From a virus (lineage: Duplodnaviria; Heunggongvirae; Uroviricota; Caudoviricetes), in IMG/VR virus record IMGVR_UViG_2778261509_000004, positions 1-12,467 of that record: 12,467 nucleotides of DNA. One strand, given 5' to 3'. Below are positions 768 to 11,971 of this stretch, piece by piece (position 1 is the first letter of the stretch; each line of letters opens with the position of its first letter). The translations under genes and the position numbers were made by a program. Under the pieces are notes generated by a model. The model was not told the origin of the DNA, did no database searches, and worked only from the letters and a program-made list of their open reading frames with translations.

Positions 768-834
768 ACCACGCTAGCTCTACCCTGTGCCACAAAATGT
801 CAATTTGCATCTGAACTAATGCACTTTAATCTCG

Positions 835-1257
835 TCACTTCAATAAATACCGAACATCACCCTGATAAAACGACAATATGCGCTGCATAACTTCACTCTT
901 CCGGCACTCGCGACAGATTATGTTCTGACGCCTGTCGTAGCGACGTATTTCTCCGTCAGGTAATGACCAGATAAGGTCCGGATCAACCGCAGATGGTTTC
1001 TTCAGCTTTGCCCTTGAGAGCTTTTTACGGGCATTTTGCCAGTCCTTACGCGCCTGTTCAGACGGGAATAACCCGTAACCAGAGTTGTATACATCGCCGC
1101 TGGCAACCAGCTCTCTTGCGAGAACGCTCATCAGATATCTTGTCGCACCTGTCTTGACTTCCAGTTGCCGTAACGTCTCGCGTCCACTCCGGCGTACTAG
1201 CTCAACAACCTGCCCTTTAATTTTTTCCCGCTCTTCCTGTGTAAAAACTTTTGCCAT
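835..1257 (-). CDS. hypothetical prophage protein (140 aa from the ATG at 1257)
   Basis: ORF-track ORF 835-1272. I chose the internal ATG at 1257 because GGAGG lies 5 nt upstream on the coding strand; the track start at 1272 is a TTG that abuts the upstream stop. Tightly packed behind the replication genes on the same strand. No recognised motif. Confidence 0.65.
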   Translation of the reverse strand: MAKVFTQEEREKIKGQVVELVRRSGRETLRQLEVKTGATRYLMSVLARELVASGDVYNSGYGLFPSEQARKDWQNARKKLSRAKLKKPSAVDPDLIWSLPDGEIRRYDRRQNIICRECRKSEVMQRILSFYQGDVRYLLK

Positions 1258-1272
1258 AAGCGCCTCCGGCAA

Positions 1273-2034
1273 TCACTTTTCCGACACAATACGACTGGAG
1301 GAATCGACAATCTGTCGGACAATATCCCGGTGCTTGTTCAGCTCCCGCAGCGCGGCGCAGACTCGCTCCCACTTCTGGACATGATTTTTCGCCCGACGCA
1401 GTTCGCGGTTTGCCATATGCAGCGATGGTAAAACCAGGTCATCCGCTTGCGTTTCAGTAAACGATGGCAGCGACTGCACAATGTCCGCCACAGTTTCTGT
1501 TTTAATATCTTCCTGTGTTGCCGCTTCCTGTACTGGTAACGCAACACCGGCTGGCTGAGGAAAGGCTTTACCATCAGTTTCCGCTACCGATGCAGCTTTC
1601 GGCTCTGCTGGTAAATTATCGCCCGGCATGCAGTAACGAAATTTACCGTTCTGATTAACGCGAATCAGACGACCTTTACTGATTGCCATTGCCAGCGTTG
1701 AAGCCACTTTGCGTGATGTGATGCCGAAAAACGTAGCCAGTTCATCCGCCGTTTGTGGGCCACGTTGTTCAATCGTCGCAGTTAAATCGCACTCCGAAAT
1801 TTTTGCGACTGTTGCCGTGGTGGTTTCTTCCGGCAGTTCTGCCTGCTCTGGCTGTTCCTGCTGAACGTTGTTATCAGCCACGCGCCAGGTGTATACGCTT
1901 TTATCAACGAAGCCAGCCTTTTTCAGTTCCCACAGCTCGTTCAGCACTTCTTCACGACTGATATCAAGTCGCGCAGCCAGTTCTACCGACGTAGCTTTCC
2001 CCATTGCTTTCAGTGCGTCAAAAACAGTCTCCAT
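1273..2034 (-). CDS. hypothetical protein with two putative winged-helix-like segments joined by an acidic linker (253 aa from the ATG at 2034)
   Basis: ORF-track ORF 1273-2085. The ATG at 2034 ([13 protein letters not shown]) is preceded by GGGAGA about 10 nt upstream and leaves a 22-bp gap after the DnaC-like stop. Two segments look HTH-like: [32 protein letters not shown] and [35 protein letters not shown]. The fold assignment is inference from sequence pattern only. Confidence 0.65.
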
Positions 2035-2056
2035 TAAATTTTTCTCCCGGTAAAAA

Positions 2057-2803
2057 TTACTTCGCAATTCCTGGCTGGACGACATTCGGACGCCAGCTCT
2101 CCCAGTTAAAATTCACCCATCGCCCGCCGTTCATGGTCATGCGATCCATAATCCGCTCGCCGAGCAATGTTTTCATGGCCTCATAGTTCAGGTTTGTCAG
2201 CATTCCCACGCTACGCATCGACGCTGTCCGTCGATCAATAATCTGGTGCAGTACCACCTGCTCGTTTTTCGTCTCGCGCTGAATGCCAATTTCATCAAGA
2301 ACCAGCAGATCCACTTCGCACAGTTCCCGCAAAAATTTTTCGCCTGACTGCCCGTCGTCATAGCTGGCGTGGAGGGCACTCATAACATCAGCCACGGTAA
2401 CCACAATCACTGTCTGACCGTCTTTCAGCAGGCGATTCCCGATAGCTGCCGCTAAGTGATTCTTCCCGGTACCAGGTTTTCCGCTGAACGCAAAATTTGT
2501 ACACCCGGTCATCAGTTCATCAGCGATGGATTTCGCCTGACTCAACGCGTATCGCTGCCCTTCGTTCTGCACCTGGTAATTCGAAAACGAGCATTTGCGG
2601 TGCAATGGCTGGATGCCAGAGCGATTCAGAATTTTTTCCACCCGCAACTGACGATTCTGACGGTTGATCTCCTCACAACGTTTCTGGCCTTCGGAAAGTT
2701 GCCACTCGCGCCACTCCGCTACCGTCTTGAATGGCGCGGTTACATGTGACGGGGCCAGTCTGCGGATACGTTCAAGAACGTCGCCTGTCGCAATATTTTT
2801 CAT
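2057..2803 (-). CDS. DnaC-like AAA+ helicase loader (phage replication protein P functional analogue; YdaV-like)
   Basis: Walker [16 protein letters not shown] and Walker [10 protein letters not shown] in the translation, as in DnaC/IstB-family ATPases. GGGGG RBS 9-13 nt upstream. Start lies 6 bp after the stop of the upstream O-like gene, suggesting translational coupling. Confidence 0.9.
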
Positions 2804-2809
2804 GGTCAG

Positions 2810-3598
2810 TTACCCCCTGAAGCCTGGCGGGATCGCACTATCCGGTAACGAGACGGTGTTAACCTGTCGGAGTAACGTCTCAGGTCGAACACCTTTCGGC
2901 GCGAACAAGCCCTGGTATTCGTTGGCGATGCTGTGTCGAATCACCTGCTCAGGTGAAAAACCCTGCTGGCGGAATTTTTCCAGCTCCCGTATCGCCCCGT
3001 TAGCGCCCTGCTCCGTTCGAATCGGTTTTCGCAATGCCTGCCTGAACTGAACCCACTCATGCCAGAGTGTTTCCGGCAACCAGTCAGGCAGCTCGATAGC
3101 CTCCGGTTCGAATTTTTTAGACGCTCGTTTTTGGCGAGGGGGATTTAGGGGGAGATAAGTATTTATATCTTCCTCTTTCTCTTCCTCTGGTAACGCTTTT
3201 TGATCCGTTTTTGTAACGCTGGCAGCGTTACCTTTTCGTTTCAGTTCTCGTATTTTTGTTACTCTCTCGTTTGTAACCGCCCGTTTTTTAGAGCTTTTCC
3301 CGTTATGGCGCTCAAAGTTAGGAAGCGACAACACACCATTAGTTTCGACCAGCCATCCAACCTGAATTAACGCATCAGCAAAACCAGCCATAAAAGTGAT
3401 GCGATCTATTGCACTTTTTGTAACGCCGCGAGCGTTACACTCTGCGTTACCGTCTATCATTTGTTGATCCGCCCATGCCCAGAAGCGAATGACTTTCCCT
3501 AATGCGGCATCTGGATCAATATTCAGAATCTCAGCAAGCCTGAATATTTCCGGCTTATCCGGCGTAATAACTTCGAGCTTTATCCAGTTTGAAGCCAT
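2810..3598 (-). CDS. putative replication initiator / replisome organiser (lambda O-like position; YdaU-like)
   Basis: 262-codon ORF immediately upstream of the DnaC-like gene on the same strand. Two 19-bp palindromes lie inside the coding sequence and a third just upstream, like iterons within lambda O. Function is inferred from synteny and the repeats, not from a recognised catalytic motif. Confidence 0.6.
   Translation of the reverse strand: MASNWIKLEVITPDKPEIFRLAEILNIDPDAALGKVIRFWAWADQQMIDGNAECNARGVTKSAIDRITFMAGFADALIQVGWLVETNGVLSLPNFERHNGKSSKKRAVTNERVTKIRELKRKGNAASVTKTDQKALPEEEKEEDINTYLPLNPPRQKRASKKFEPEAIELPDWLPETLWHEWVQFRQALRKPIRTEQGANGAIRELEKFRQQGFSPEQVIRHSIANEYQGLFAPKGVRPETLLRQVNTVSLPDSAIPPGFRG
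3213..3231. repeat. 19-bp palindrome GTAACGCTGGCAGCGTTAC (copy 1 of 3), candidate origin iteron or operator
   Basis: Perfect dyad GTAACGC-N5-GCGTTAC read directly from the sequence. Extra half-sites nearby: GTAACGC at 3190-3196 and GTAACCGC at 3273-3280. Confidence 0.7.
3420..3438. repeat. 19-bp palindrome GTAACGCCGCGAGCGTTAC (copy 2 of 3)
   Basis: Perfect dyad, same arms as copy 1 with a different 5-bp centre. Followed by an extra half-site GCGTTAC at 3444-3450. Confidence 0.7.
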
Positions 3599-7396: not shown

Positions 7397-10300
7397 ATGA
7401 GCACAAAACCACTCTTCCTGTTACGGAAAGCGAAAAAATCATCCGGTGAACCTGACGTCGTCCTGTGGGCAAGTGACGATTTTGAATCGACCTGTGCCAC
7501 TCTGGACTACCTGATCGTTAAGTCAGGTAAAAAACTGAGCAGCTATTTTAAAGCTGTTGCCACGAATTTTCCTGTCGTTAATGACCTGCCCGCTGAAGGT
7601 GAGATCGATTTTACCTGGAGTGAACGCTATCAACTCAGCAAAGACTCCATGACATGGGAACTAAAACCGGGAGCAGCACCAGACAACGCTCACTATCAAG
7701 GCAATACCAACGTCAACGGCGAAGACATGACTGAGATTGAGGAGAATATGCTACTCCCAATTTCTGGCCAGGAACTGCCCATTCGTTGGCTTGCTCAACA
7801 CGGCAGCGAAAAACCGGTAACGCACGTTTCACGCGACGGACTCCAGGCATTACACATTGCTCGGGCTGAAGAACTACCGGCTGTTACTGCCCTGGCTGTT
7901 TCCCACAAAACCAGCCTGCTCGCCCCGCTGGAAATTCGCGAACTCCACAAACTGGTTCGTGACACTGACAAAGTTTTCCCTAATCCTGGTAATTCAAACC
8001 TGGGACTGATAACTGCTTTTTTCGAAGCATACCTGAACGCTGACTACACCGATCGAGGACTGCTGACAAAAGAGTGGATGAAGGGTAATCGTGTTTCACA
8101 CATCACTCGCACGGCTTCCGGTGCTAATGCTGGCGGCGGAAACCTCACCGATCGCGGCGAAGGTTTCGTACACGATCTGACGTCACTGGCGCGCGACGTA
8201 GCCACTGGCGTACTGGCCCGTTCAATGGATCTGGACATCTATAACCTTCATCCGGCACACGCTAAACGCATTGAGGAAATTATCGCTGAAAATAAACCGC
8301 CCTTTTCTGTTTTCCGCGACAAATTCATCACCATGCCTGGCGGGCTGGATTATTCCCGCGCCATCGTGGTTGCGTCCGTAAAAGAAGCACCAATTGGGAT
8401 CGAGGTCACCCCCGCGCACGTCACTGAATATCTGAACAAAGTACTGACTGAAACCGATCATGCCAACCCTGATCCGGAAATCGTGGATATTGCCTGCGGT
8501 CGCTCCTCTGCCCCGATGCCGCAGCGAGTAACAGAAGAAGGAAAACAGGATGATGAAGAAAAACCGCAACCATCTGGAACAACGGCAGATGAACAGGGAG
8601 AGGCTGAAACAATGGAACCGGACGCAACTAAACATCATCAGGACACGCAGCCGCTGGATGCTCAGTCACCGGTAAATTCTGTTGATGCGAAATATCAGGA
8701 ACTGCGGGCAGAACTCCATGAAGCCCGGAAAAACATTCCATCAAAAAATCCTGTCGATGCCGATAAATTGCTTGCTGCATCACGTGGTGAATTTGTTGAC
8801 GGAATTAGCGACCCGAACGATCCGAAATGGGTTAAGGGGATCCAGACTCGCGATTCTGTGTACCAGAACCAGCCAGAAACGGAAAAAACCAGCCCGGATG
8901 TGAAACAACCTGAGCCAGTAGTGCAACAGGAACCGGAAATAGTCTGCAATGCCTGCGGTCAGACTGGCGGAGATAACTGCCCTGACTGTGGGGCGGTGAC
9001 GGGCGACGCAACATACCAGGAAACATTCGATGAAGAGAATCAGGTTGAAGCTAAGGAAAAAGATCCGGTGGAAATGGAAGGCGCTGAACATCCGCACAAT
9101 GAGAATGCTGGCAGCGATCCGCATCGTGATTGCAGTGATGAAACTGGTGAAGCGTCAGCTCCTGTAGCAACTGAAATCATGTGGCCGTCATATTTCGAGC
9201 CTGGCCGCTATGAAAACCTCCCGAACGAGGTTTATCACTCCGCCAACGGAATAAGCAGCACGATGCTGAAGGATGCCCGTATCAGCCTGATGTATTACCA
9301 CGGACGGCACATTGCCGGAACTATTCCGAACGAGGAAAGTGATGCACTGCTGCGTGGGCGGATCATTCACAGCTATGTTCTGGAAACGGATAAATTCGCT
9401 GATGAATATGCCATTCCGGTACCAGTTCCTGAATATGTGGTTACTACTTCTAGCGAACTGATCGCCATCATTAAAAAACACAATGCCAGTCTGCCAGCAC
9501 TGATGACACCAGAGCAGATGAAAGAGTGGATCGAAAGCTACAACAGCACTCTTATACAGCCACTGTCTGTAAGTGCTGGAGCCGAAGAAACAGGCATCCT
9601 TTACGGTTCGCTTCCGGTGGAATTCCGGCGTATTCCGGAGGAGGAGAAACATACTGCATCGGCAATGAAAGCCTGCATTAGAGAATACAATGCAAACCTC
9701 CCTCCTCTGTTGAAAACCAGTGGAACACGGGAGCAACTTCTGGAGCAAATTGAAACTGTAGATCCAGAACTGGCGAAAAAAGAACGTGCTAAATCTTTGC
9801 CTTACAACATCAGTGGCACGAAAGAGCAATTAACCGAAATCGCTCGGAAAATCCGCCCGGAACTGGTTACCCTGGAGGACTGGCAAAAACGCCAGCAAGA
9901 AGAAAACGCCGGGAAAACGTTTATCAGTTCAGATATGTATGAACAGGCAAAAAATATTCACGCTGCACTGCAAAACAATACTGATGCAGCAAGGCTACTC
10001 AACCACCCGGATCGCAAATCTGAAATCAGCTATTTCGGGTTTGATGAAGAAACCGGGCTGGAAATCAGGGTCCGTCCTGATATCGAAATCCGGCTGCCAT
10101 ACGAAAGCATTTGCGCCGACGTGAAGTCAGTCAGCCTCGGTTATGTGCGACAGGAACGACTGAAAGATCGCCTGCACCGTGAAATTATTGAGCGTGATTA
10201 TCACCTCAGCGCAGCAATGTATTGCGATGTGGCAAATCTGGACAAATTTTTCTGGATCTTCGTCAACAAAGATGCTGGCTATCACTGGGTGGCAGTCGTG

Positions 10301-10468
10301 GAAGCCTCGCAGGAACTCCTGGAACTTGGTCGACAGGAATATCGCCGGACGCTACGCCAGATAAACGAAGCCCTGGAGACAAACAACTGGCCAGCACCGA
10401 TTACCGAAAGTTATACCGACGAATTAAACGACTTTGATCTTCGTCGTCTTGAAGCACTGAGCATCTGA
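7397..10468 (+). CDS. recE: RecE-family exodeoxyribonuclease VIII (1023 aa) with a C-terminal PD-(D/E)xK-type nuclease domain
   Basis: N-terminus [24 protein letters not shown] matches recalled RecE. The C-terminal third carries YH...GIS and RPD...DVK motifs. It also has an acidic low-complexity linker and a C-x2-C-x7-C-x2-C knuckle ([16 protein letters not shown]). Longer than the 866 aa I recall for K-12 RecE. Confidence 0.85.
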
Positions 10469-10479
10469 GGAAGGACACA

Positions 10480-11532
10480 ATGAACGAATTAACTCAACAA
10501 GAAAATATTAACTCTAATGTTGCGGTTTTCAGCCCTCAGTCCCTGGCTGCAATTCAGACATTTTCCCAGGTAATGGCTTCCGGCATGGCTACTGTACCGG
10601 AACACCTCCGGGGAAATCCATCAGACTGCATGGCCATCACCATGCAGGCGATGCAGTGGCAAATGAACCCTTACGCAGTAGCTCAGAAAACTTTCGTTGT
10701 GAATGGTGTGCTCGGATATGAAGCGCAACTGGTTAATGCCGTAATCAGTACTCGTGGGCCGCTAACCGGGCGTATTGAATATGACTGGTTCGGGCCGTGG
10801 GAAAAAATTATCGGGAAATTTGAAATCAGGAAGAGCGACAAAGGGAAAGAATATCGTGTACCTGGCTGGAAGCTGGCCGATGAAAACGGGATCGGTGTTC
10901 GTGTCCAGGCAACACTACGCGGCGAAAGTAAACCACGCGTACTGGAATTACTTCTGGCGCAGGCCAGAACACGTAATTCAACGCTATGGGCCGACGATCC
11001 TCGCCAGCAGCTTGCCTATCTGGCGCTGAAACGCTGGGCGCGCCTTTATTGCCCCGAAGTGATTCTTGGAGTGTACACCAGGGACGAACTGGACGAGCCA
11101 CAGGAAAAAATCATTAATCCGGTTCAGGAACATAAAAACACTTCCGCTTGCCGCGCGGAACGTGAAACAACAATTATTGAGCAGGATGCCGGGGAAAACT
11201 GGATCGATGCTTTCCGTGAACGTATTGAGCAGGCACAAAGCACCGGGGAAACAACAGCACTTCGCCAGGAAGTGGAAGATCATAAAAATACACTTGGCGC
11301 TCTCTATACGGAACTTAAAGGAAAAGTGGTTCAGCGTCATCACCGTCTCAATGCTATTGCCCGTATCGAGAAGATGATAAATGACCTACCTTCTTCAGGT
11401 GATCCAGAAGCAGAACAAAAATTTACTGCTCTGGAAAATACGCTGAATGCTGCCCGGCCACATCTGGGTGAATTATATGAGGCGTATAAAACGACACTGA
11501 CAGATATGAAACCAGAATATATCGGCTCCTGA
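10480..11532 (+). CDS. putative single-strand annealing protein partnered with RecE (RecT/Red-beta-like; 350 aa)
   Basis: Starts 12 bp after the recE stop with a GAGGAAGGA RBS, the classic exonuclease-then-annealase order. A segment (AITMQAMQWQMNPYAVAQKTFVVNGVLGYEAQLVNAVIS) loosely resembles the conserved core of Red-beta/RecT. It does not match the 269-aa K-12 RecT I recall, so the family call is tentative. Confidence 0.55.
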   Translation: MNELTQQENINSNVAVFSPQSLAAIQTFSQVMASGMATVPEHLRGNPSDCMAITMQAMQWQMNPYAVAQKTFVVNGVLGYEAQLVNAVISTRGPLTGRIEYDWFGPWEKIIGKFEIRKSDKGKEYRVPGWKLADENGIGVRVQATLRGESKPRVLELLLAQARTRNSTLWADDPRQQLAYLALKRWARLYCPEVILGVYTRDELDEPQEKIINPVQEHKNTSACRAERETTIIEQDAGENWIDAFRERIEQAQSTGETTALRQEVEDHKNTLGALYTELKGKVVQRHHRLNAIARIEKMINDLPSSGDPEAEQKFTALENTLNAARPHLGELYEAYKTTLTDMKPEYIGS

Positions 11533-11542
11533 TATTTACTTT

Positions 11543-11580
11543 GGCGGTGTAGCCTCACCGCCATCACAAAATTTTATTTT
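11543..11580 (+). terminator. possible intrinsic terminator or attenuator after the annealing-protein gene
   Basis: GC-rich hairpin GGCGGTG-TAGCCT-CACCGCC (11543-11562) followed by ATCACAAAATTTTATTTT. The U-rich run is separated from the stem by several nt, so termination would be partial at best. Confidence 0.4.
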
Positions 11581-11595
11581 ATGAGAGAAAAGACA

Positions 11596-11790
11596 ATGCG
11601 GTATGAAAAAGTCAAACCATGCCCTTTTTGTGGTTGTCCATCAGTAACGGTGAAAGCCATTTCAGGATATTACCGCGCGAAGTGTAACGGATGCGAATCC
11701 CGAACCGGCTATGGTGGAAGTGAAAAAGAAGCACTCGAACGATGGAATAAACGAACCACTGGAAATAATAATGGAGGTGTTCATGTATAA
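11596..11790 (+). CDS. ralR: RalR/Lar restriction-alleviation protein (64 aa)
   Basis: Translation MRYEKVKPCPFCGCPSVTVKAISGYYRAKCNGCESRTGYGGSEKEALERWNKRTTGNNNGGVHV with C-x2-C ... C-x2-C matches recalled Lar. The ORF-track start at 11581 has no RBS; the ATG at 11596 has AGAGA upstream. Confidence 0.75.
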   Translation: MRYEKVKPCPFCGCPSVTVKAISGYYRAKCNGCESRTGYGGSEKEALERWNKRTTGNNNGGVHV

Positions 11791-11971
11791 AATTACCGCC
11801 ACTATTGAAAAGGAAGGTGGCACTCCTACTAACTGGACAAGGTACTCAAAAACAAAATTAACCAAATCAGAATGCGAAAAAATGCTCTCAGGTAAAAAAG
11901 AAGCAGGCATTTCCAGAGAGCAGAAAGTAAAACTGATAAATTTTAATTGCGAGAAACTTCAGTCGTCGTGA
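11783..11971 (+). CDS. ydaC: YdaC-like small protein (62 aa from the ATG at 11783)
   Basis: Strong GGAGG (11773-11777) 5 nt before the ATG at 11783, which overlaps the ralR stop. Position between ralR and xisR matches Rac ydaC. Exact start and identity are uncertain. Confidence 0.5.
   Translation: MYKITATIEKEGGTPTNWTRYSKTKLTKSECEKMLSGKKEAGISREQKVKLINFNCEKLQSS

Follow-up and report, generated by a model that had tools for sequence, protein, structure and literature searches.

Which part of a phage exonuclease-annealase pair is exchanged between prophages, which of two alleles is the chimera, and what keeps the nuclease and the annealase together? These questions are raised by the recE and recT-family genes of a 12,467-nucleotide (nt) stretch of viral DNA, IMG/VR virus record IMGVR_UViG_2778261509_000004, referred to here as the window. 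The whole window is a Rac-like Escherichia coli prophage at the ttcA site. The corresponding RecE and RecT proteins of the K-12 Rac prophage are the standard of recombineering. A first-pass annotation of the window, made from the letters alone, had described an oversized RecE with a non-canonical partner, and had proposed that a different nuclease-annealase pair was joined to the conserved N-terminal part of recE. The evidence assembled here indicates that the pair is very probably an intact RecET of the type found in Gifsy-1/2, HK225 and Rac-SA53, that is, a phage exonuclease with its single-strand annealing protein, residing in a Rac-like prophage at ttcA.

A Gifsy-type recE-recT pair

The two genes and their junction are as follows.

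7397..10468, + strand: recE, exodeoxyribonuclease VIII, long Gifsy-type allele (open reading frame, ORF, of 1023 residues)
10480..11532, + strand: recT-family annealase gene (350 residues), candidate member of the 'enterohemolysin'/EHAP1-like subgroup
10467..10474, + strand: Shine-Dalgarno-like GAGGAAGG of recT, overlapping the recE stop codon (read from the sequence)

Both ORFs had been called correctly in the first-pass annotation. The recE product matches the NCBIfam equivalog NF007259 over its full length (residues 1-1022; 1517 bits against a cut-off of 1269) as well as PHROG 607, and RefSeq labels the identical gene recE, exodeoxyribonuclease VIII (WP_032084365.1); the label for the recT-family gene is 'RecT family recombinase' (WP_001004422.1). 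An 11-nt spacer with the Shine-Dalgarno element separates the two genes in the window, whereas the K-12 genes overlap by 8 nt. Gene order follows K-12 Rac (racR, ydaF, sieB, kilR, ydaE, racC, recE, recT, ralR, xisR, intR, ttcA), and complete genomes, NZ_AP027487 and NZ_CP043821 among them, match the window at 99.98-100% identity. An assembly chimera or artefact was rejected because the locus occurs with 100% identity in several complete genomes. A promoter and terminator scan of the region returned nothing exceeding shuffle expectation.

The pair has the composition of Gifsy-type RecET: a collinear nuclease domain with a helical insert, and a RecT with an additional C-terminal domain, encoded by adjacent genes. 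Relative to Gifsy-1, RecE is 45% identical over residues 443-1023 and 41% over residues 3-366, and RecT 49% over residues 10-349. The corresponding values for HK225 are 51% for RecE over residues 594-1021, with a partial match in the N-terminal region, and 49% for RecT over residues 10-349. At the nucleotide level, the cassette at 9167-11541 is 88% identical in phage Rac-SA53 and about 68% in Gifsy-1, Gifsy-2, SPN3UB, HK225 and mEp237. In Gifsy-1/2, HK225, Rac-SA53 and related phages, a RecE of 961-1129 residues is as a rule accompanied by a RecT of 350-371 residues, and the annealase family, found across Enterobacterales, comprises more than 6400 clusters at 90% identity, many of them named 'enterohemolysin'. 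The sizes that had seemed oversized and non-canonical are therefore the usual ones for this type. A passage of PMC3121763, citing Lemire 2008, states that the Gifsy recET orthologues suppress recombination defects when activated (de-repressed). These functional data concern orthologues about 50% identical to the window pair, which tempers the assignment; activity of the window allele itself would be a prediction from sequence.

Distribution and selection

Among 5426 complete E. coli genomes, 193 have the cassette, 159 of them at full length, and in most of these 159 both ORFs are intact. It is under strong purifying selection: in comparison with an allele that is 94.6% identical and occupies another integration site, the ratio of nonsynonymous to synonymous substitution rates (dN/dS) is 0.08 for the nuclease domain, 0.05 for recT and 0.42 for the RecE N-terminus plus linker, the full ranges being 0.08-0.11 for the nuclease domain and 0.42-0.46 for the N-terminus plus linker. 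These values bear on the possibility that recE and recT are non-functional remnants decaying in a cryptic prophage. Repression is the normal state of the Rac recET genes (PMC3945230), and insertions of IS100 or IS3, or deletions, are found in the module of some strains, as such decay would produce. Yet the window and most genomes with a full-length cassette have both ORFs undamaged, the catalytic residues are conserved, dN/dS is as low as 0.05-0.11, and the related phage Rac-SA53 was deposited as a complete phage genome. Decay is thus a very improbable description of this pair.

As to individual disrupted modules (H3-H6; L007:3985-5197; L005:4016-5597), the insertion sequence IS100 (IS21-family) is found in enterotoxigenic E. 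coli isolates, an IS3 insertion splits recE in O145 strains, and in strain E300010 a deletion joins the recE 5' end to the recT 3' end. In a record designated 'Actinobacillus phage vB_Apl-pPE4' (PP818812.1, positions 784-3158), nucleotide identity to the cassette is 97.6%, and the encoded RecT matches that of the window at 100% identity; the Actinobacillus host label looks doubtful for a phage that resembles the Rac-like ones of E. coli.

The unit exchanged relative to K-12 Rac

Alignment with K-12 Rac located two breakpoints and a conserved element at the second.

9166..9167, no strand: left breakpoint against K-12 Rac, at about RecE residue 590, between ...DETGE and ASAPVAT (blastn)
11541..11542, no strand: right breakpoint against K-12 Rac (blastn homology back at 11542, 94.7%)
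11543..11562, + strand: conserved GC-rich hairpin just after the recT stop, in the shared flank (unique match in the window)

Nucleotide homology to K-12 Rac runs at about 97% by blastn from upstream of recE through 9166, where the left junction sits in the acidic linker of RecE, and the right junction lies ten bases beyond the recT stop codon, at the hairpin. Since homology stops at 9166 and resumes at 11542, the unit swapped relative to K-12 Rac is exactly the nuclease domain plus the annealase, 9167-11541. The mosaic proposed in the first-pass annotation is real to this extent: a different nuclease-annealase pair stands behind a shared recE N-terminus, and the alignment to K-12 RecE and RecT that was suggested as a check placed its edges. 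The stem of the hairpin is conserved in K-12 and Rac-SA53; its RNA fold has a centroid energy of -15.3 kcal/mol, and the 76-nt stretch a minimum free energy of -16.3 with a z-score of -2.2. Experimentally, the minimal functional module is RecE588 (from residue 588) plus RecT (PMC3945230; PMC11611040), and the natural left breakpoint coincides with the engineered RecE588 start (PMC3945230). Exchange of the allelic cassette would have proceeded by homologous recombination in sequences common to both alleles, the recE linker at the left end and the hairpin/ralR flank at the right end.

Smaller blocks have been exchanged as well. Positions 7694-8050 (RecE residues 100-218) lack nucleotide homology to the SA53-type alleles L006 and L009 and also to the L008 allele at the yebY site, and positions 10747-11004 (RecT residues 90-175) lack it to L006 and L009; the flanks of both blocks are 91-96% identical. 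SA53-type RecT proteins are 57% identical to the window protein in the N-terminal domain and 82% in the C-terminal domain, a split that indicates further exchange inside recT. In L008 (NZ_CP151934), a Rac-like prophage that lies beside yebY/copD and has another integrase contains the cassette at 97% identity, from which it follows that the cassette is mobile among attachment sites and prophage backbones.

The nuclease domain contains a helical insert

The C-terminal nuclease domain of RecE is made up of three segments.

9182..9415, + strand: PD-(D/E)XK core, first part, residues 596-673 (Y613-H614, H658)
9416..9985, + strand: helical insert in the nuclease domain, residues 674-863 (AlphaFold2, AF2, and family alignment A2)
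9986..10465, + strand: PD-(D/E)XK core, second part, residues 864-1023 (catalytic D895, D908, K910)

The RecE C-terminus matches the PD-(D/E)XK-like Pfam family DUF3799 at residues 836-1000. In the family alignment (A2, 18 sequences), the motifs Y613-H614...GIS, H658, RPD with D895, and D908-V-K910 are invariant or nearly so, which bears out the YH...GIS and RPD...DVK motifs noticed earlier. The family profile aligns with residues 5-113 of the RecE crystal structure 3H4R and with residues 4-73 of the SPN1S stand-alone exonuclease, in each case over the first part of the core. The domain is thus homologous to the crystallized RecE nuclease and retains the catalytic Asp...Asp-x-Lys. Identity to the K-12 nuclease domain is only 27-29%, in two blocks split by an extra segment of about 190 residues (about 140 net), so the divergence from the K-12 RecE C-terminus that the first-pass annotation suggested is genuine. 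The domain is accordingly not of the K-12 type, namely a collinear, insert-free orthologue, about 270 residues long, of K-12 residues 595-866.

The segment concerned spans about 190 residues in the window as against about 49 in the short RecE-type nucleases (SPN1S, 274 residues; the K-12 domain). It is conserved in the family alignment and absent from the K-12, SPN1S and phiV10 nucleases compared. AF2 models it entirely as helices, with a predicted local distance difference test score (pLDDT) mostly of 80-93 over residues ~670-850 that drops at the ends (64-74 at residues 650-669; 73 at 851-860); the nuclease core itself was modelled poorly (pLDDT <50), owing to a shallow alignment. An internal repeat is indicated by a Smith-Waterman score of 59 against 33.8 +/- 6.4 for shuffled sequences (about 4 standard deviations), a score reached by 1 of 200 shuffles. 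The repeat units, of about 20 residues, read T-x3-hydrophobic-x3-I-x2-Y/H-N-x2-L-P and SGT-K/R-EQL. Comparison with the SAP and Ish1 (SAP/HeH) profiles gave sub-threshold hints only, and the resemblance to SAP/HeH is one seen by eye.

The RecT-family annealase

The 350-residue partner can be divided into a core, a linker and a C-terminal domain.

10567..11106, + strand: annealase core, N-terminal domain, residues 30-209
11065..11193, + strand: predicted disordered linker of RecT, residues 196-238 (AF2 pLDDT <50)
11194..11523, + strand: helical C-terminal domain of RecT (~110 residues), residues 239-348, candidate exonuclease-docking module

Residues 30-209 match Pfam RecT (PF03837) with 147.5 bits against a cut-off of 24, over profile positions 2-190 of 198, and the protein matches PHROG 561, 'RecT-like ssDNA annealing protein', with an E value of 1.3e-145. 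Searches of PDB sequences with the sequence and with profiles returned no annealase; fold comparison alone found a match, with the N-terminal-domain model closest to the N-terminal domain of Red-beta. The protein is thus predicted to have the RecT/Red-beta/Rad52-like fold, as the fold prediction proposed in the first-pass annotation was meant to establish. The C-terminal domain resembles T4 UvsW.1. BLASTP of the 350-residue protein against K-12 RecT (269 residues) found no similarity (E 0.36), so that the two are not orthologues by this measure, and hhalign of the family alignment with K-12 RecT as a lone sequence gave no usable signal (probability 0.3). The relationship of the two proteins is visible solely through the Pfam family model. 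The earlier description of a protein of non-RecT length that is loosely RecT-like was right about the length and about the distance from K-12 RecT, and understated a strong Pfam RecT membership.

Homologues at 58-70% identity carry the source name 'enterohemolysin', and many database names would thereby make the protein a toxin. The strength of the Pfam RecT match speaks against it, and text in PMC8767327, citing Oscarsson 2002, describes the phage Ehly determinants as RecT recombinases, non-hemolytic, rather than hemolysins. We therefore reject a hemolysin function, which has next to no credibility. PMC8093625 equates the Ehly proteins with the EHAP1-like subgroup of Iyer et al.; from the names of its homologues and this literature, the 350-residue protein is a candidate member of that subgroup.

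In phiV10-like phages (L012:2116-3876), a short RecE-type exonuclease and an annealase of the window's N-terminal-domain subfamily form one 586-residue fusion. The PHROG 561 profile is 633 positions long, of which the window RecT covers 284-619 only; its length may be due to such exonuclease-RecT fusions.

Co-occurrence of the insert and the RecT C-terminal domain

The distribution of the two additional domains was surveyed at 183 viral loci from three phage groups (80 + 80 + 23).

Window-like RecT loci, n = 80: RecT C-terminal domain in 80; nuclease insert in 78 (no insert match in the other 2)
SPN1S-like RecT loci, same N-terminal-domain subfamily (~53% identity), n = 80: C-terminal domain in 0; insert in 0
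Aeromonas pAEv1818-like loci, n = 23: C-terminal domain in 23 (32-34% identity); insert in 22 (1 truncated)

Of the two window-like loci without an insert match, L034 has its start within the nuclease domain; in L080, where sequence does extend upstream, neither the insert nor the first core segment was detected. The annealase N-terminal domain of the pAEv1818-like loci has no BLAST similarity to that of the window. SA53-type alleles keep the nuclease, at 96-100% identity, together with the RecT C-terminal domain, in spite of their diverged annealase N-terminal domain. K-12 has the RecE N-terminus and neither the insert nor the long RecT C-terminal domain. It follows from this pattern that the C-terminal domain tracks the insert-bearing nuclease, and not the annealase core or the RecE N-terminus.

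That loci have either both of these domains, the insert and the C-terminal one of RecT, or neither suggests a docking pair. By analogy with the C-terminal domain of Red-beta, which docks on lambda Exo, the RecT C-terminal domain may dock on the nuclease insert, a proposal to which we give almost an even chance. The 'coupling modes' of diverse RecT C-terminal regions described recently are consistent with it (PMC13490951). In such a mechanism, the RecE C-terminal PD-(D/E)XK domain (D895, D908, K910) would resect the 5' strand at double-strand ends, RecT would be handed onto the nascent strand via its helical C-terminal domain docked on the insert, and the RecT N-terminal domain would coat and anneal the 3' single strand. 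These steps, like the enzymatic activity of the window RecE and RecT, are inferred from family membership.

Several points weigh against docking. The 183 loci represent three phage clades and not 183 independent events, and the nuclease and RecT modules are physically adjacent, so that linkage alone could explain their co-occurrence. The Red-beta C-terminal domain also binds the single-strand DNA-binding protein SSB (PMC13490951), and by the same analogy the window's C-terminal domain could bind host SSB instead. It is therefore a serious possibility, if somewhat short of even, that the two domains are not partners at all, that the RecT domain binds SSB or another factor, and that both travel together as neighbours in one cassette. 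The double specificity of the Red-beta domain, for lambda Exo and for SSB, fits such an arrangement, as does the resemblance to T4 UvsW.1; the ETfinder paper, moreover, reports several RecT C-terminal architectures in which the predicted contacts with RecE are often a short element (PMC13490951). Linkage, however, predicts that the annealase N-terminal domain, located between the insert and the C-terminal domain, would travel with them. Instead, the C-terminal domain stays with the insert-bearing nuclease where the N-terminal domain has been exchanged (pAEv1818, SA53 type), and is absent where the same N-terminal-domain subfamily is paired with an insert-less nuclease.

Which allele is the chimera

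For the direction of the exchange, we considered the 50%-identity cluster representatives of at least 500 residues that bear the RecE N-terminus. A PD-(D/E)XK domain is present in 20 of these; the core is of the window type in every one and of the K-12 type in none, and an insert was detectable in 18. Their scores are 100-334 bits for the window-type core versus 0-74 bits for the K-12 domain. K-12 RecE residues 595-866, for their part, match over the full length the complete stand-alone exonucleases encoded by Edwardsiella phage Edno5 (273 residues, 63%) and Proteus phage Pm34 (272 residues, 60%). K-12 RecT is 71% identical to the 267-residue RecT proteins of the same two phages, in which the exonuclease and recT genes overlap as they do in K-12. 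In the alignment, codon ATA-595 of K-12, located a few codons beyond the breakpoint, stands opposite the ATG start codons of the Edno5 and Pm34 exonuclease genes.

Because the diverged long RecE proteins are uniformly of the window type and the K-12 unit matches stand-alone two-gene modules, we consider it likely, though well short of settled, that the window arrangement is the native long-RecE architecture and that K-12 RecE is the chimera. The K-12 allele would have arisen when a stand-alone module of short exonuclease and RecT was fused, in frame, downstream of the N-terminus and linker of a long RecE. Two facts count against this direction: long RecE proteins of the K-12 type may be concealed in 50%-identity clusters that another sequence represents, and in E. 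coli the K-12 allele outnumbers that of the window.

The reverse direction, with a K-12-like recE as the ancestor, an imported foreign nuclease-annealase pair, and the window allele as the derived mosaic, is what the first-pass annotation implied. The K-12-type cassette is about nine times commoner in complete E. coli genomes (1751 versus 193), and the two alleles hardly differ over the N-terminal 590 residues, which speaks for it. An import is nevertheless hard to reconcile with the 20 of 20 window-type representatives, with Gifsy-1 and pAEv1818, whose divergence is commensurate across the N-terminus, nuclease domain and RecT, or with the fact that the nearest non-Rac relatives of the K-12 nuclease are complete stand-alone proteins of 272-274 residues that start at K-12 residue 595. 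We judge it rather unlikely, and the polarity first proposed was probably reversed. Taken jointly, the two ideas that the insert and C-terminal domain form a dedicated docking interface and that K-12 RecE is a chimera, produced recently by in-frame grafting onto the N-terminus and linker of a Gifsy-type long RecE, make a tentative picture, which may well fail in one half or the other.

The RecE N-terminal region and linker

Upstream of the nuclease domain lie the following features.

7400..7930, + strand: RecE N-terminal Exonuc_VIII domain, residues 2-178 (Pfam PF06630, 324.8 bits)
8492..9196, + strand: acidic low-complexity linker, residues 366-600 (D+E 21.7%, K+R 8.5%, P/Q/S/T/G/N 39.6%)
8945..8989, + strand: CxxC-x7-CxxC zinc-knuckle-like motif in the linker (C517, C520, C528, C531; regex match)

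RecE residues 1 to about 590 are approximately 97% identical to K-12 RecE, and the Exonuc_VIII domain is ~97-100% identical; both the Rac-RecE-like N-terminus and the linker, which has more acidic than basic residues, had been recognized at the outset. Linker length differs among alleles. The region comprising residues 1-365 is rare, with 188 representatives among 1.84 billion 50%-identity clusters. Linear-linear recombination is the one activity known to require RecE at full length. The cysteine knuckle, which had been presented as a distinguishing feature of the window allele, is real but does not distinguish it: the motif is identical in K-12 RecE at the same position, is conserved in the SA53-type and L008 alleles, and is absent from the Gifsy-1 and HK225 RecE proteins compared. 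In view of the K-12 motif, the knuckle is a feature of the Rac-type linker and is not peculiar to the window allele. The Pfam Zn_ribbon_3 profile gave E 2.4 for it, far below threshold.

In P0242 and 11 other representatives, the RecE N-terminus is joined within one protein to a nuclease of another kind, an unrelated 3'-5' exonuclease of the DEDD type (Pfam Rv2179c-like, PF16473); the N-terminal region of P0242 is 99% identical to that of the window. In phage vB_EcoS-689R5 (L198:2830-5271), a dicB/ydfD (Qin-like) prophage, the gene for an 813-residue 'exodeoxyribonuclease VIII' has downstream of it a small hypothetical ORF, then the integrase gene, and no annotated annealase. In P0241 (703 residues), the RecE N-terminus is fused in frame to the C-terminal part of a K-12-type RecT, apparently via deletion, and in P0244 (775 residues) an Exonuc_VIII N-terminus precedes a tail that resembles, by eye, a Rad52/Sak-like annealase motif. 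As a scaffold, the RecE N-terminus looks portable from one nuclease to another.

Neighbouring genes

Directly downstream of the pair lies the RalR/RalA type I toxin-antitoxin system (11596-11790, + strand; 11789-11967, - strand). The ralR ORF matches Pfam Lar_restr_allev, and the RalA small RNA matches Rfam RF02694 at 212.7 bits. The first 1000 nt of the window are low in G+C (36-40% versus about 50% elsewhere). A 167-residue ORF at 185-688, at this left end, has no Pfam match and corresponds to a longer hypothetical protein in NZ_AP027487; it may be a moron or cargo gene.

Discussion

The window pair is a previously uncharacterised Gifsy-type RecET, belonging to a family that is already known and common, and since phage mosaicism and RecET diversity are well established, current understanding is not overturned. 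What is new is the detail of coupling between the insert and the RecT C-terminal domain. If a docking interface of this kind exists, it would constitute a third coupling mode, distinct from those of K-12 RecE/RecT and lambda Exo/Red-beta, and would explain the joint transfer of both modules; their co-inheritance makes the two domains a testable candidate for a determinant of partner specificity. The natural breakpoint indicates that nuclease domain plus annealase is the unit of exchange, matching RecE588 plus RecT, and if K-12 RecE is indeed a graft, its graft point at about residue 590 nearly equals the residue that engineers later chose for RecE588. A chimeric origin of K-12 RecE, which is likely, also bears on how the N-terminal 600 residues of 'unknown function' are read. 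As a natural, co-adapted exonuclease/annealase pair of E. coli that is orthogonal in sequence to standard RecET and lambda Red, the window pair may find use in recombineering or in orthogonal pairing.

Among known systems, lambda Exo/Red-beta likewise pairs a 5'-3' exonuclease with an annealase; the C-terminal domain of this annealase docks on lambda Exo. Unlike the window RecE, however, lambda Exo is a 226-residue single-domain trimer with no long N-terminal region, and Red-beta and the window RecT share no sequence similarity in their C-terminal domains. The EHAP1/Ehly annealases are enterobacterial prophage proteins distinct from classical RecT and Red-beta, as is the window RecT. K-12 Rac RecE (866 residues) and RecT occupy the same locus with the same synteny, and RecE is shared up to about residue 590, including the knuckle; the PD-(D/E)XK catalytic motif is common to both nucleases, that of K-12 being the structure 3H4R, and both annealases belong to Pfam RecT. 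The K-12 pair differs in having neither the ~190-residue nuclease insert nor the ~110-residue helical C-terminal domain of RecT.

Close relatives are Rac-SA53 (KU052037) and the SA53-type alleles, which belong to the window's own prophage family and share its ttcA site, synteny, cysteine knuckle and nuclease domain. The Rac-SA53 RecE, of 1048 residues, differs in a block at residues ~100-218 and in a longer linker, and its RecT chiefly in the N-terminal domain; a literature search found no paper on the Rac-SA53 recombination genes. Gifsy-1 and Gifsy-2 (Salmonella Typhimurium STM2632/STM2633), HK225, mEp237 and SPN3UB have the same architecture as the window, in which Exonuc_VIII, a linker and an insert-bearing PD-(D/E)XK domain follow one another. 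Their RecT proteins, of 369-371 residues as compared with 350 in the window, likewise end in a helical C-terminal domain; the nuclease region is 45-52% and RecT 49% identical to the window, and in both groups the genes lie upstream of xis and int. Gifsy-1 differs from the window in an N-terminus only about 41% identical, in the lack of a cysteine knuckle, which HK225 lacks as well, and in its prophage backbone and integration site.

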